Positions 56,885 to 64,000 of a stretch of DNA of 64,000 nucleotides are shown here, piece after piece. Position 1 is the first letter of the stretch. The number at the start of each line of letters is the position of its first letter. This stretch comes from an uncultured Planctomycetota bacterium (GTDB lineage: Bacteria > Planctomycetota > Planctomycetia > Isosphaerales > Isosphaeraceae), in the NCBI GenBank assembly GCA_963737655.1, contig CAVTTN010000002.1, forward strand, positions 480,001 to 544,000, given 5' to 3'. Below the pieces are notes generated by a model, which ran no database searches, had not been told where the DNA came from, and was given only the letters and a program-made list of their open reading frames with translations. The position numbers and the translations under genes are program-made.

Positions 56885-56958
<74 letters not shown>

Positions 56959-57083
56959 CTTTTAAGATCGTGTCGCCAAAGGACTTGTGGCGATCTTGAG
57001 AAAACGACTTTCGCCCTAGTGCCGGTCGTTCACAAGATTTCACAAAACCGAACCCAGGCCGTCACGATTCACGGAGAGCCGGT

Positions 57084-58761: not shown

Positions 58762-59598
58762 TCAACGGGCGGCGATCCAGGCGTCGATGGCACCACGGTG
58801 GAACTTCCAGGGCTTGCCGTCGCCCGTACCCAGGACGAGGCAACCCAAAGGGATCTTTCCCTGCCGGGCCAGGTCGGCGATCCATGTCGTGGTGCAGCCC
58901 AGGCGACCGGCGACGTACGACGAGTCCACGATGTCGGGAGGAGGCGGGTCCATGACATCGGCGATCCGCCTGATGTCGGCGATGAGCGACGAGAGGTCGG
59001 GGTGTGAGGGCAGCGGCGGGACGGCCAGGTGGCGACTCTGTTTCCCTGCGAGGCCATCCAGGAACTCATCGACTTGCGTCTCGGTGATCCTGATCGAGCC
59101 GTCTTTAATGCGATGTACAGGAAGGCCCTCGGACACCATCACCTCGAAGTCCGCCGCACCCATCGTGAAGAGGTTGCAGAACTCATCCTTCGTCCAAACT
59201 TGCCCTACTCCCTTGCGGCCAGACGGCCTGATGAACTCCAGAGTCTCGCCATGCCCGAGCAGGTGGTTCTCGGAGACGGCGTGGCCTCCGATCATTGCGA
59301 TAGCGTCGGGGGCGATGTTGAAAAGGCCGGACACTTCGTGACGAACTCGACCCACGTCCTGACCCCCGAGCGGAAGGACGTCCTCGTTCGCCCCGTGGAT
59401 GACGCAGACCAGGCCCGGCTCGGAGGCCGGGACTTCGAGGCGTTTCCGGGAGGCGACCATGCGTCCGGCATGTGCCTCCACCTCCTCGGGGCTGGCGAAT
59501 CCCGACTCGAACAGGCGGAAGGGTGGGCGGACCGTTGCCGCTGAATCGTGGTTATCACTTCTTGCATCTCCGGCTGAACCCGATCGATCATGTTCCAT
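58762..59598 (-). CDS. Fusion protein: ubiquitin-like beta-grasp domain + two excisionase-like (HTH_17/MerR-type) HTHs
   Basis: Ubl-like segment VCVIHGANE...LLGHGETLEFIRPSGRKG. HTH1 WTKDEF...GLPVHR...IRITETQVDEFL. HTH2 YVAGRLGCTTTWIADLARQGKIP...WKFHRGAIDAW. Start is 59598 (GAGGG RBS) or 59652. Confidence 0.72.
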   Translation of the reverse strand: MEHDRSGSAGDARSDNHDSAATVRPPFRLFESGFASPEEVEAHAGRMVASRKRLEVPASEPGLVCVIHGANEDVLPLGGQDVGRVRHEVSGLFNIAPDAIAMIGGHAVSENHLLGHGETLEFIRPSGRKGVGQVWTKDEFCNLFTMGAADFEVMVSEGLPVHRIKDGSIRITETQVDEFLDGLAGKQSRHLAVPPLPSHPDLSSLIADIRRIADVMDPPPPDIVDSSYVAGRLGCTTTWIADLARQGKIPLGCLVLGTGDGKPWKFHRGAIDAWIAAR

Positions 59599-59674: not shown

Positions 59675-60602
59675 TCAAGCGAGCCCCGCAGGGAGCAATC
59701 CCTCGTCACGCAACTCGGAGATCCGCCGATAGAAGCCTGCCCGGCTCCCTCCCGTCCGCTCCTTCCATTCCCTGACCCGCTCCTGCTTGCCGTCGTTGGA
59801 GGCCCAGATATCCAGGGCGATTCGCCTCTCCACTTCGAGCCGCTCGGACCGGCTGATGTCGTTGGTGGGGTGCTTCGGCTCGAAGAGTTCCTGGCGGATC
59901 GATGCTTCGACAAGATCCTTCCAGTGGCTCTCGCTCTGCCTCGCCTCCCAAAGCTGGTAGTCTCGCAGCGCCTTGTCCACGAACAGCCTCAGGCTGGGAC
60001 GCAACTCGTACTCGTGCAGGCGATTCAGCAGGTGGCCGAGCACCTGGACGCAGGATCTCGGCGGTATTCCGTGGTGCCCTCTGGCTGCGATGGAATGCAT
60101 CAGGGCGACCATCTGCTCGTCGCTCGGCTCGTAGTGGATCACATGCACCCGATCCCGGAGGGCTCGGGTCACTTCTCCGTGGTGGCCCGCCAGCGGCAGG
60201 TTGCTGATGCCGATGATCGCCCCCCTGAAGGCGATGACCATATCGTCGCCCGACTTCTTGTAGCGGACGTAACGCACGTTCGTCCCGTCGTGGCTGTTAC
60301 CCAGGGCGGCAAGGAGGATCTGGAGGGCGATCGGGGCGTTGAAGGTCTGCTGGATGTCGTCCAGGACGATGATCCGGTCGTGGTTCTCGGCGAGAAGTTC
60401 GAACAGTCCCTTCGGCGTCAGGATGACCGTTGCTGTAGGCGTGTTGGACGGCCAAGTGGTCGAGCGTGGACCGGACGGTGTAGGTCTTGCTCGTGCCGGG
60501 GCGACCGTGCAGATAGACGCCGGTCGCCTTCCTGTGGATGCAGGCACGCACCCGGTCCCTAACGATCGTGAGGCTCTGTTCGAGCGACTGGAGGTGGTTC
60601 AC
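59675..60602 (-). CDS. Phage-type AAA+/P-loop ATPase with C-terminal HTH (frameshift near 60421)
   Basis: GGAG RBS + GTG 60602. Walker A GRPGTSKT and Walker B IIVLDD are in adjacent frames, joined by removing one base. Also IIGISN and C-terminal TGGSRAGFYRR. Confidence 0.8.
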
Positions 60603-60769: not shown

Positions 60770-61534
60770 CTACCCGCTCCGTAAGAGTTGCCGGGCCGTG
60801 TCGCAATAAGCCCGGTCGATCTCGACCAGTGTGCAGTCCTGGATTCCCAGCCGCAGGCAGGCCCGCCCCGTGTTGCCGATCCCGGCGAAGGGGTCCAGGA
60901 CCTTCAGGTCGGGGCGGACGCCGTGCAGGCGTAGGCATCGCTCCGGCAACTCGGGCGGGAAGATGGCGGGATGCGGTGCTTGACCTTTCCTCGGGACGTG
61001 CGGGATGGGCCAGATCGAGCCGCCGCAGCACCGTTCCCGTTCAGGCGACCAGCGATCCCGATTGGAATCGGACCGTGGGCGTCCGACGCCTTCGGCGTAC
61101 TTGTCGATCGGGCGTCTCCCGGTGTGAGAGAACAGGTAGACGAATTCGTGATGCTTGTCCGGTTGGTACGGCGATTGGCCGGGCCGGAACTGACCACGCT
61201 GGGTGCCGTCCTGGTCGGGGAGTGACTTGGCCCAGATCACCTCGAATTGCTCGACGAGATACTGGGATGCGATGGCACGCAGGTCGTCCGTCAGGGTCGG
61301 GTTCCTGGCGAAGTCGCCGATCTGTAGCCAGAATGTGCCTTCCGGGTGCAGGACCCGAGCGACTTCTCGCAGCCAGAGATCGCACCACGACAGGAACTCC
61401 CTGCGAGGACGTCGATCGTTGTACCTGGAGTAGCGGACTGCGAGGTTGTACGGAGGGCTGGTGACGATCACGTCTACGGAAGCATCGTCCACCCTCATCA
61501 AGTATTCCGTACTATCGGCGTTGATGACCCGCAT
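60770..61534 (-). CDS. Beta-class amino-DNA methyltransferase, probably N4-cytosine
   Basis: Motif IV VTSPPYN precedes HPAIFP and motif I VLDPFAGIG. SPPY is typical of m4C enzymes. Confidence 0.9.
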   Translation of the reverse strand: MRVINADSTEYLMRVDDASVDVIVTSPPYNLAVRYSRYNDRRPRREFLSWCDLWLREVARVLHPEGTFWLQIGDFARNPTLTDDLRAIASQYLVEQFEVIWAKSLPDQDGTQRGQFRPGQSPYQPDKHHEFVYLFSHTGRRPIDKYAEGVGRPRSDSNRDRWSPERERCCGGSIWPIPHVPRKGQAPHPAIFPPELPERCLRLHGVRPDLKVLDPFAGIGNTGRACLRLGIQDCTLVEIDRAYCDTARQLLRSG

Positions 61535-61718
61535 GTTCGTCCGACCTTTGGGTACGAAGGTGTCAAACTCGTGATCGGCTTCAAACAGGAGAGATGCGGG
61601 TAGCTGAACTCGTCATGGGAGAAGCGAGAGCTAGTCTGGTCGGCTCGGGACAGCCTCAAGCACCGACAGGATGGTCGCCCCGAAGCTCCGGCGGGCCACC
61701 ACCCTCTCCCGGCCCCGA

Positions 61719-62525
61719 TCAGGCCATCGACTTGACGATCGATTCGAACTCGGCCATCAGCACCCGACGTTCCCCTAGAGTGGGCATCGGTCGCTCGCCC
61801 ACGCCCGGCATTTCGTCATAGGTCTGTCCGTCCAGTTCTCGCCCGGTCTTCTTCTTGTTGAAACCGCCCCATTGCTTGAAGAAGAACGGGACGCCGGTGT
61901 CCCGGCACCGGTCCCTAATCGAGCGGACCCAGGCCGAATCCATCGGCCTCGCCCCGTGGCCGCTCTCGCCGCCGACGATCACCCAGGAGATCCCGCCCAG
62001 TTCGAGGGGGCCGAGGTCCTCCAGAAGCGGCTCGACGGATAGGAACCGCACCTTCGCCGGGGCGGCTCGCAGGTGCTCCACCCTGGGCAGGCCGTGGCGG
62101 CGGTTCTCGACGCTGACGCCCCACCAGATGTGCGGCTCGTCGGCGGCGTCATGCAGCTTCGTGAGGAGGAGGTTCCGGAGCCGCTCGGAGCGCTTGGTCA
62201 GGACTTGATACGTGTGCCAATTGGCGAGACGCATGACCCGGACGACGGCCAGGATGTAGTCGTCGGGGACGTCCTCGTGGAACAGGTCGCTCATCGAGTT
62301 GACGAAGACGAGCTTGGGGGACGACCACCGCAACGGCTCGGCGAGTTTCTCGGGAACCAGGCGCAGGTCGAAGCCCTGCTCGTAAGGATGGCCTGGGACA
62401 TCCCGGAACCGCTCGGCGAAGGTCTCGGCGTAGCAGTGGGCGCAGCCGGGGCTGATCTTCGTGCATCCCCGGACGGGGTTCCAGGTGGCGTCCGTCCATT
62501 CAATCGTCGAGTTGTCGCCCATCAT
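61719..62525 (-). CDS. Phage Gp37/Gp68 family (DUF5131) three-Cys protein
   Basis: STIEWTDATWNPVRGCTKISPGCAHCYA (Cx6CxxC), FVNSMSDLFH, LTKR, SVEPLL, GGESG and FFFKQWGG. Confidence 0.93.
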   Translation of the reverse strand: MMGDNSTIEWTDATWNPVRGCTKISPGCAHCYAETFAERFRDVPGHPYEQGFDLRLVPEKLAEPLRWSSPKLVFVNSMSDLFHEDVPDDYILAVVRVMRLANWHTYQVLTKRSERLRNLLLTKLHDAADEPHIWWGVSVENRRHGLPRVEHLRAAPAKVRFLSVEPLLEDLGPLELGGISWVIVGGESGHGARPMDSAWVRSIRDRCRDTGVPFFFKQWGGFNKKKTGRELDGQTYDEMPGVGERPMPTLGERRVLMAEFESIVKSMA

Positions 62526-62568
62526 CGCTCCAAACCGGCCCAGGCCGGGAAATTGAACTCTCGTTTAG

Positions 62569-64000
62569 GCAGTAGTTTCCCTGGAAATCGACACTCTCGT
62601 CGCGACGTCGCGTAGCATCTCCGTCCCCTCGACGCCGCCGAGCGGCTCCCGAGGCCCTGAAAACCAGGCGTCCGACACCTTGAGTGCGTCGGATCCATCT
62701 GCGATACTTCATCGCGGCCTACACTCAGGCCACTTTCTCCTCGTGTTTCAGCCAGTTCGAGAGGAGACGCTGGATTTCCGGCCGATGACGCCTCAGCAAC
62801 CGCTCCACGTCCAGCACGCTCGCTCGGTCCTTCTTCTTGTTCCACGGCGGCGGCGACCACCAATCCGTGCATCCTCGCTCATCCAACGCGAATTGCAACA
62901 GCCGCAGCAGGCTCATAGTGATCCATTGCACCTGCGTCGTCCGCTCGATCGGCGACTTCGTCCAGGCTCGACACTCCTCCCATCCCAGCCTCTGCTTCAG
63001 GTCCCGGAACCCGTCCTCCTGGCGGAACCTCACGGCGAACAACTCGACCATCTCCAACCCGCTCAGACCCAACGCCGAACTCACCACCGTGAATCGCTTC
63101 TGGTAACCCTCGACCTCGGCCACCACCGCCTTGACCGTCACGTCATGTCCGAGCACCCGCCAGAGGCAGGCGATCTCCTTCCAACGGACCTTTCGCACCC
63201 GGCCGTAGATAAAGGCCTCGCCCTTCTTCCAATCCCCGGGCCAGCGTCCCCCCTGGCGAGGCGGGGACAGCTTCTTGCCCCACACGGGAGTCCGGCCTCG
63301 TTTCCCCTTGGGTCGCTTGGCCGGCGGCAGGGCGTGGAGTCGGGCGTCGTGCCGCAACCGGGTCAGGAAGTCGATGCGAGGCAAGCCCTCTTCGGCCATG
63401 ACCAGTGGCCGAACGACATTCTTCAGGGCGTAGCCGCCGTCGAAGACGCCCAGGTGAGGCCCGGCGTTGATCCGGGCCTGTTCCCGCAGCAGTTCGACGG
63501 CCAGTTCGCACTTGGTCCGGAAGACCTGCTTGGGGCCGGCGACGCCACAGCGGAAGGGGAGTTGCGACTTGCGGAAGTAGAGCCGCCCGGAGATCGGCAG
63601 ATACCAGGCGGGCTGGCCATCGTTCTTGAGCAAGGCCCCGAGGCAGACCCAGTTGTGAGCCCGGACGGTGGTGGCCCGGTTGGGACAGCGAGCGGTGTAT
63701 TCGTGGAAGGTGCATGTGCCCCAGACGTGCTCGCCCGAGCGATGGACCTTGGTGTCATCGACGGCCGAGATCCGATAGCCGTGCCAGATCCGGCCGGGAG
63801 CCTCGTCGATGAGTCCGGAGAGGTTGCTGGTGAGGATCTCGGGCTTCCAGACGGCGTACTCGGCGAAGGATTCCAGGGCCTTCCAGTCGGCCAGTCGCTC
63901 GATGGCGACGACCGACTGGGTGATGGTGTGCTCCTCGACGTTGAGGGATAGAGCGGTGACCCACTCGACGAAGCGGCGGTAGCCGGGTCGAGTGAATGCG
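62569..64000 (-). mobile_element. IS701-family insertion sequence (other end off-window)
   Basis: Contains the transposase below. The end is tentatively placed at GCAGTAGTTTCC, which abuts TTAG (62565-62568), a YTAR-type target described for IS701. Confidence 0.6.
62725..63999 (-). CDS. IS701-family DDE transposase (5'-partial)
   Basis: Frame is open from 63999 (AFTRPGYRRFVEW...) through VDDT, FDGGY, TRLRHDARL and RFRQEDGFRDLKQ. Confidence 0.88.
   Translation of the reverse strand, partial: AFTRPGYRRFVEWVTALSLNVEEHTITQSVVAIERLADWKALESFAEYAVWKPEILTSNLSGLIDEAPGRIWHGYRISAVDDTKVHRSGEHVWGTCTFHEYTARCPNRATTVRAHNWVCLGALLKNDGQPAWYLPISGRLYFRKSQLPFRCGVAGPKQVFRTKCELAVELLREQARINAGPHLGVFDGGYALKNVVRPLVMAEEGLPRIDFLTRLRHDARLHALPPAKRPKGKRGRTPVWGKKLSPPRQGGRWPGDWKKGEAFIYGRVRKVRWKEIACLWRVLGHDVTVKAVVAEVEGYQKRFTVVSSALGLSGLEMVELFAVRFRQEDGFRDLKQRLGWEECRAWTKSPIERTTQVQWITMSLLRLLQFALDERGCTDWWSPPPWNKKKDRASVLDVERLLRRHRPEIQRLLSNWLKHEEKVA

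Follow-up and report, generated by a model that had tools for sequence, protein, structure and literature searches.

The analyzed window comprises 64,000 nucleotides of planctomycete DNA (G000:C2:480001–544000, where G000 denotes the genome carrying the window, which is 88% complete). It contains a gene, P0001, encoding a ubiquitin-like (Ubl) domain followed by two helix-turn-helix (HTH) domains, and only 68 bp separate its end from the start of the next gene, which encodes a divergent tyrosine integrase (Table 1). The initial annotation had placed P0001 in the xis position beside an integrase, and family scans agree, identifying its neighbors as the integrase, an ATPase-like gene, and a methylase. 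The integrase is 52% identical to the gene that follows the Ubl-HTH gene in locus L045. The attachment repeat at the tRNA gene and its distant copy, which match at 44 of 45 positions, define an island of approximately 80 kb with P0001 at one end. This island carries BREX genes and much other cargo; phage satellites of the PICI or PLE type are compact elements with packaging-hijack genes, and part of the island's ORFs were scanned against families. The sequencing runs listed included no reads of this strain and no RNA dataset, the best share being 0.24, and contigs of relatives yielded no informative att joint.

Table 1. Features of the P0001 locus, in window coordinates.
Feature	Position	Strand	Basis
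tRNA-Arg(ACG), integration target	56885..56959	(+)	Integrase points toward tRNA
Attachment repeat	56917..56961	(+)	Repeats tRNA 3' part; second copy (44/45) beyond the window, at C2:616932-616976
Divergent tyrosine integrase, 473 aa	57272..58693	(-)	phrog_1, E = 1.6e-10
Ubl-HTH-HTH gene (P0001)	58762..59598	(-)	278 aa ORF; homolog alignment
HTH2, PF12728 HTH_17	58765..58914	(-)	Pfam; residues 229-278
Amphipathic helix preceding poly-proline stretch	58951..58995	(-)	Conserved; common to tag-less relatives
HTH1, Xis/MerR-type winged HTH	59029..59208	(-)	Model and 6hn7 alignment; begins 2-3 residues past the glycine
G-R-K-G junction, G127-R-K-G130	59209..59220	(-)	Putative cut after Gly130
β-grasp ubiquitin-like domain, G-x-K-G family	59209..59409	(-)	Residues 64-130, 67 aa; AlphaFold model and profile
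N-terminal extension, ~62 aa	59413..59598	(-)	Close homologs keep part of the extension

Further genes were noted in the island and the window. A BREX/Pgl-type defense cluster on the island (G000:C2:593714–611100) encodes BrxC/D, PglZ, an Eco57I-type methylase, and a NERD-kinase. The ATPase-like gene upstream of P0001 (59675–60602, minus strand) contains a frameshift near position 60421; contigs of relatives (two runs, depth 2) are one base shorter near this position, which points to a one-base insertion in the window, either real or an assembly error. A paralog of this gene lies at C2:4087370–4087783, near a second divergent integrase. Farther upstream in the island (60770–63633, minus strand) are an N6/N4 methylase gene, a DUF5131 gene, and an IS701-like transposase gene. 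A very large gene for a repeat-rich surface protein (32679–52797, minus strand) is present as three consecutive ORFs of 5253, 1030, and 423 residues and is apparently frameshifted.

Homologs of P0001 begin at the annotated Met, approximately 14 codons downstream, or directly at the Ubl, and the start codon is provisional; in the homolog alignment P0012, P0014, and P0017 lack the N-terminal extension. In family scans, no entry of Pfam, NCBIfam, or PHROGs matched the 67-residue segment itself, which the initial annotation had read as a β-grasp domain. ThiS is matched by just 2 of 14 aligned Ubl homologs, and sequences of solved structures give weak matches only (FUBI, E = 0.06; SAMP2, E = 0.38). 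An AlphaFold model of positions 59418–58765, built on 40 sequences, has a mean pLDDT of 88.5 and a pTM of 0.40, with pLDDT values of 85–98 across the Ubl, whose predicted secondary structure is strand-strand-helix-strand-strand. VIA-align matches the Ubl model to ubiquitin-like, MoaD, FUBI, SUMO, and ThiS-type chains with Z scores of approximately 8–9 and RMSDs of 1.8–2.8 Å over 64–70 residues. The top Foldseek rows are nearly all β-grasp proteins, none of them at E ≤ 0.001. The segment models as a β-grasp ubiquitin-like domain with a conserved C-terminal glycine, in line with the earlier reading. The G-x-K-G ending that had been pointed out is also kept at the junction, being invariant in 12 of 13 aligned homolog rows and in the query (invariant columns G64, K66, and G67).

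HTH1 (about residues 133–190) follows almost directly on the junction glycine, as had been described. It has no Pfam match, and aligns with the PICI protein 6hn7 (Z = 8.2, RMSD 1.8 Å, 58 residues). The amphipathic helix is possibly a dimerization helix. The Xis-like HTH expected at the end of the protein is recognized by PF12728 HTH_17 above its cut-off (E = 9.9e-8), and P0001 also matches TIGR01764, below the cut-off (E = 0.0028). Whether or not a Ubl is present, it is HTH2 that stays conserved ahead of integrases of this family. The protein thus combines HTH_17/MerR-type winged HTH domains with an integrase-adjacent gene in an att-flanked element, as do Xis-like factors, and its HTH part may act as a recombination directionality factor or a regulator. 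P0001 resembles HTH_17/Xis-like directionality factors and AlpA-like regulators in the PF12728 match and in lying directly upstream of a tRNA-targeting integrase, and differs from them in having two HTH domains and a Ubl leader. The Xis-like fold also serves in PICI packaging redirection (6hn7) and in transcription control.

The initial annotation further envisaged a caged excisionase, released from the Ubl by cleavage. The cage is not borne out, as the pTM of 0.40 means that the model predicts no fixed contact of the Ubl with the HTH domains and no packing on them. A cleavable precursor fares better, given the behavior of free and tandem relatives at the motif. A profile of 14 fused Ubls matched 1926 clusters at E ≤ 0.001 among 1.84 billion representatives, and the best 150 of the 1926 were examined. 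Among these 150, 53 of 62 terminal Ubl domains end in G-x-K-G with 0–5 extra residues, and 29 of 39 internal repeats of tandem poly-Ubl proteins, with a period of approximately 68 residues, end in the same motif. Free members ending at G-x-K-G and tandem repeats recurring at it make the motif a candidate processing site. In the same best 150 clusters, 52 of 54 fusions with at least 60 further residues keep G-x-K-G (the profile here includes the tail), and the motif survives even though the fused Ubls average 42% identity.

Several members of the family deserve separate mention. The tandem poly-Ubl precursors P0045, P0049, P0060-P0065, L286, L294, and L304 contain two to four repeats, each ending in G-x-K-G, in an arrangement like that of polyubiquitin, and some lie on phage contigs. 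Loci L086, L089, and L113 encode Phd/YefM-like antitoxins with a C-terminal or neighboring Ubl that lacks the motif; in L113 a ParE gene lies alongside. Vibrio phage D69 (L144, OZ195729.1), a cultured 187-kb phage, encodes a G-T-K-G-bearing protein together with Prok-E2_D and JAB genes, all annotated as hypothetical, and offers a tractable system for the cassette. In a tree of the 68-residue domain, fused, free, and viral members are interspersed, and the tree lacks the strength to indicate a donor or an order of events.

Across the phylum, 17 of 401 genomes match the Ubl family. Free Ubls in these genomes adjoin Prok-E2_D, JAB, and ThiF genes, some also a proteasome-type AAA ATPase gene, and often lie near integrases or recombinases. 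The four-gene set of Ubl, Prok-E2_D, JAB, and ThiF resembles class 6d and PRTRC (TIGR03735-03738) cassettes, and a G-T-K(-G) stretch is seen in 6d-type Ubls from an Anabaena plasmid and from a Vibrio phage. However, the partners match PRTRC_A, PRTRC_B, and PRTRC_ThiF weakly, all far below the NCBIfam cut-offs, so these are class 6d-like cassettes that do not pass as PRTRC. Likewise, the window Ubl matches neither PF14454 nor TIGR03738, the best relative reaching only E = 0.4 against the latter (10.8 bits against 45.95). Class 6d comprises Ubl-JAB-E1-E2 operons, and the accessible text of Iyer, Burroughs and Aravind 2006 (PMC1779556) describes its Ubls as stand-alone. In P0001, by contrast, the Ubl leads a DNA-binding protein from its N-terminus, in a genome without a matching cassette.

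The tail contributed to the scores of the first profiles, so the junction was assessed with a profile truncated ahead of it. This tail-blind profile was searched in 402 genomes of two families, where loci were obtained for 26 of 26 and 31 of 37 matches, giving 59 distinct domains. Tails of at least 40 residues are present in 37 of the 59, and G-x-K-G is kept in 30 of these 37, a count in which some bias is left, as the training rows were themselves found with tail-bearing profiles. The seven domains without the motif comprise two Ubl-E1 fusions, three lacking the last glycine, one lacking the first, and one with a low-complexity tail; the motif is gone from the Ubl-E1 fusions P0059, L098, and L104. 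In a dereplicated set of 53 cellular fusions, which includes E1 fusions and a few read-through tails, Gly65 is present in 50, Lys67 in 52, and Gly68 in 43, compared with 18 of 18 free viral copies at each position. The last glycine is therefore less conserved in cellular fusions than the lysine, or than in free viral copies. HTH fusions with K-S, K-E, K-T, or K-A at this point include L048, L045, L187, P0141, and P0188, and the fusion closest to a phage Ubl, L212, ends in K-S. For the fused Ubl, dN is lower than dS in 13 of 13 pairs, which are not independent, with values like those of the HTH. By this measure the fused tag is under purifying selection.

A complex of the window Ubl with a family JAB from genome G275 (locus L036) was predicted with a score of 0.83, the best control scoring 0.21. 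The mark used for this score is reached by 116 of 157 solved pairs versus 2 of 215 mismatched pairs. At least 98% of contacts recur between runs, and the partner pLDDT is at least 92. The predicted interface holds tail residues 61–71, with Lys67 near JAB residues 135, 136, and 139; of the other Ubl residues touching the JAB in the model, Gly7 is kept in 48 of 53 and Asn32 in 40 of 53 cellular fusions. JAMM-Ubl complexes have already been solved, so the predicted complex may show likeness only.

The initial annotation dealt with a single protein. Beyond it, the tag proved to be portable and to lead many unrelated island proteins, and the matching peptidase lies mostly on other elements, including large phages. 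Distribution of the Ubl is patchy, with matches in 30 of 401 class genomes, mostly as N-terminal fusions. Its cargoes include Xis-like HTH_17 or AlpA domains, OmpR-type winged HTHs, D12 and MT-A70 methylases, and DUF1580, to which proteins not placed in a genome add GNAT acetyltransferases. In P0102, on a 250-kb contig, and P0153, Ubl-G-x-K-G is fused to RimI-like GNAT acetyltransferases. Among 58 distinct fusions, 26 lie within 300 bp of a match to an integrase or serine recombinase, 29 lie farther away, and 3 are at a contig edge. All seven Ubl+HTH2 homologs lie within 150 bp of an integrase match, and at many loci with tagged genes a tRNA gene is found beyond the integrase. Neighboring genes may each be tagged, three in a row in L227 and two in L098, L045, and L109. 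Adjacent tagged genes at L227:15395-17893, L229:11029-11958, and L098:5156-7323, two or three in each, include MT-A70 and D12 DNA methylase genes; L098 also contains an upstream SprT-like gene and a Ubl-E1 fusion without the motif. Of nine HTH2 relatives without the Ubl, seven precede an integrase of this kind, and a contig edge truncates two of these seven. HTH2 is therefore the core, to which the tag is an addition that the basic role does not require.

The initial annotation had suggested looking for JAB, ThiF/E1, or E2 genes in the rest of the island. None is present, and no matching set was found in G000 either. With a family JAB profile built from eight cassette JABs, a matching JAB was found in 0 of 26 tag-bearing genomes (one with only a Ubl-E1 fusion and one with a frameshifted fusion), in one copy in each of 4 free-Ubl control genomes, and in 1 of 401 class genomes, where six candidates were scored for each genome. 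A six-frame scan of G000 (88% complete) likewise yielded no such JAB. It also showed no matching E1 or E2: the E1 gave weak matches to two other ThiF-family genes, and the E2 gave none. Five further genomes comprise G882, which holds both a fusion and the JAB, G1036, in which the JAB lies beside a free Ubl, and three incomplete fusion-bearing genomes without the JAB. A separate resident neighborhood of Ubl, E2-like, E1, and JAB genes lies at G000:C2:6876388-6884145, and its Ubl (C2:6876388) has a different C-terminus.

A peptidase common to the fusion-bearing islands was not found on clustering 1360 ORFs, of which the 45 widest clusters were judged by eye; the recurring clusters among these 45 are integrases, methylases, ATPases, and small regulators only. 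Peptidase-like clusters were recognized in at most 4 loci, among them the SprT-like gene of L098 and a cluster that is presumably DUF45-like. Outside these genomes, the family JAB weakly matches 4 cultured phage and 7 plasmid records, and PHROGs hold no convincing family for the cassette.

Several observations link the Ubl to phages. The Atlas places the Ubl segment next to clusters rich in viral members, and a motif scan of viral contigs gave 39 matches, 31 of which are this Ubl according to the tail-blind profile. Within 4 kb of these 31 copies, an E1 is found for 31, the family JAB for 29, and an E2 for 10; the contigs are 18–527 kb long and include a few near-duplicates. Several viral Ubls end in P-S-G-R-K-G, the same as the window domain. 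No Ubl fusion was found on the viral contigs, viral scans with the single proteins P0060, P0107, and P0176 gave nothing useful, and cultured phages and plasmids gave no tblastn match for three family Ubls. Class 6d/PRTRC-like cassettes are common in large phages and experimentally uncharacterized in the literature searched; the words "JAB" and "Ubl" are absent from the accessible main text of a jumbo-phage survey (PMC7824862).

Two of the phage records, G1049 and G1050, carry a JAB and an E1 (Pfam), the JAB genes lying at L268:1861-2784 and L275:1994-2902, respectively. G1049 provides the nearest free Ubl for 12 of 53 cellular fusions, and the Ubls of G1049 and G1050 are 70% and 67% identical to that of island fusion L212; the window Ubl is only 42% identical to the G1049 Ubl. 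The CsrA of G1049 is 79% identical over 53 residues to one in G000, whereas every one of the 268 plasmid records stays below 60%. The product of island gene C2:579154-580023 shares 54% identity over 253 residues with a G1050 protein, and this G1050 protein was matched in 1 of 151 phylum genomes, G000 itself. These shared genes suggest that such phages infect planctomycetes and trade genes with the island, and planctomycetes are likely hosts of G1049 and G1050, judging from few genes. An N-terminal M-x-F-x-x-aromatic motif occurs in 10 of 526, 5 of 195, 7 of 121, and 0 of 219 ORFs of four phage records, and in 2 of 87 island ORFs versus 0 of 252 control ORFs. In the island part outside the window, G000:C2:574030-580023 contains genes related to G1049/G1050 proteins at 26–54% identity, two of which start with this motif. 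The G1049 record itself (L318-L324) is 340 kb long, with 52 predicted tRNA genes, two of them read as having a CTA anticodon, and a host-like CsrA. Others of its genes we take to be Rho-like, IF-3-like, and SmpB-like, and host-like.

The tag keeps its cleavage motif and its peptidase-facing surface, and the matching peptidase was not found alongside it; the simplest explanation is that the enzyme comes from outside. We put at roughly 45% the probability that a phage-borne JAB cuts the tag in trans and switches the cargo on, a reading in which cleavage, excisionase activity, and host range are all parts that we infer. The island encodes a Ubl leader fused through G-R-K-G to an excisionase-like double HTH beside the integrase. 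A JAB foreign to G000 would enter with an invading element, most likely a large phage, and would remove the leader after Gly130, leaving Val131 as the new N-terminus of the cargo and switching on the DNA-binding part. Cutting would activate rather than destroy the cargo: in 43 of 52 fusions (best 150 of 1926 clusters) the glycine is followed by G, V, A, I, S, M, or C, which are stabilizing under the N-end rule. The reading as a whole is weakened by the K-S, K-E, K-T, and K-A fusions, one of them L212, by the relatives that lack the tag, by the other JABs resident in tag-bearing genomes, by a model that predicts no cage, and by G882, which holds both a fusion and the matching JAB. The broader proposal that islands took the Ubl of giant phages as a portable lock, keeping excisionases, regulators, and methylases off until a phage deubiquitinase cuts, is more doubtful.

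Cleavage may not take place at all. The Ubl could bind the JAB, E1, or a Ubl receptor of the invader uncut, as a docking or decoy tag that recruits the island protein to this machinery or jams it. The lysine (52 of 53), Gly7 (48 of 53), and Asn32 (40 of 53) were weighed as no less conserved than the last glycine (43 of 53), several intact-looking fusions end in K-S, K-T, K-A, or K-E, and the cargoes carrying the tag are very different, all of which fits such a role. We nevertheless consider it unlikely: most fusions keep the glycine flush with the start of the cargo, as in a precursor, the tandem repeats share this junction, and the motif is gone where the Ubl is fused to E1.

Alternatively, the leader may be removed constitutively by an unrelated resident JAB or another protease, and serve as an aid to expression or folding or in setting the N-terminus, as the ubiquitin leader does in ribosomal-protein fusions. 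Other Prok-JAB genes, which could cut constitutively, are present in 22 of 25 tag-bearing genomes, including two in G000 (C2:3710642 and C2:6882865); the mostly stabilizing residue after the glycine and the tagging of several neighboring island genes in L227, L098, L045, and L109 would also be consistent with this. Yet no Prok-JAB was found in the fusion-bearing genomes G779, G638, and G721 (99–100%, 99%, and 96% complete), the resident JABs of G000 score nothing against the family JAB profile, and the C-terminus of the resident Ubl differs, which makes constitutive removal rather improbable.

Purifying selection without resident machinery would also fit an exapted structural domain, in which case the Ubl would mediate oligomerization or touch the integrase or some other protein of the island, unconnected to ubiquitin-like enzymes. 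Ubls of Bil and Bub operons can dimerize and form filaments, although the oligomers described in the accessible text of PMC11601603 are those of multi-domain Ubls. Exaptation leaves unexplained why G-x-K-G is retained across unrelated cargoes but lost from E1 fusions and from copies that are C-terminal or orphan (L086, L087, L089, L112, and L113), and we consider it quite improbable. A neutral relic, that is, a Ubl gene acquired from a cassette and decaying in frame, is very improbable: the patchy distribution of the tag, frameshifted copies such as that in L110, and the tag-less relatives would fit decay, but dN is below dS in all pairs at HTH-like values and the motif outlasts the divergence of the fused Ubls.

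The reading in which a phage-borne JAB cuts the tag has partial parallels in known systems. In the available text on Type I Bub operons, a Ubl joined to a second protein through its C-terminal glycine is set free when the JAB domain of BubCD cuts the BubAB precursor right after Gly229 (PMC11601596). There, however, the Ubl is joined to the E2 of the Bub system itself, and one operon encodes the peptidase as well, whereas the cargo of P0001 is Xis-like and no matching peptidase was found. The Type I Bub set of a Ubl-E2 fusion, a JAB-E1 fusion, and a DUF6527 gene is not seen at the P0001 locus, where the cargo is an HTH. A phage-world Ubl fused to a C-terminal domain is also seen in the lambdoid tail assembly protein I, for which, in the text available to us, a JAB (protein K) has been proposed to cut at the last glycine of the Ubl (PMC1779556). 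This protein differs from P0001 in its Ubl family, its glycine-rich linker, the adjacent peptidase, and its role in virion assembly. Excision of PLE from Vibrio cholerae requires the phage-encoded directionality factor PexA together with Int, according to the accessible part of the report (10.1101/218164). Excision in response to an infecting lytic phage, triggered by one of its proteins, is thus shown for PLE and would apply to the P0001 island; PLE, as described there, borrows the directionality factor and uses a serine recombinase, whereas the P0001 island encodes its own Xis-like protein and would borrow the peptidase. A Ubl-excisionase fusion was not described in the full-text literature searched, although supplementary or further domain-architecture lists could hold one.

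If the proposed cleavage takes place, bacterial ubiquitin-like chemistry would be tied to the excision of mobile elements. Islands would have a new route to sense phage, in the form of a viral peptidase acting on a borrowed tag, and the phage's tagging enzyme would become a signal for island excision, escape, or defense. A fusion of the P0001 type provides a first simple substrate assay for class 6d/PRTRC-like cassettes. Even without cleavage, an orphan Ubl leader held under selection on many unrelated island proteins calls for explanation.
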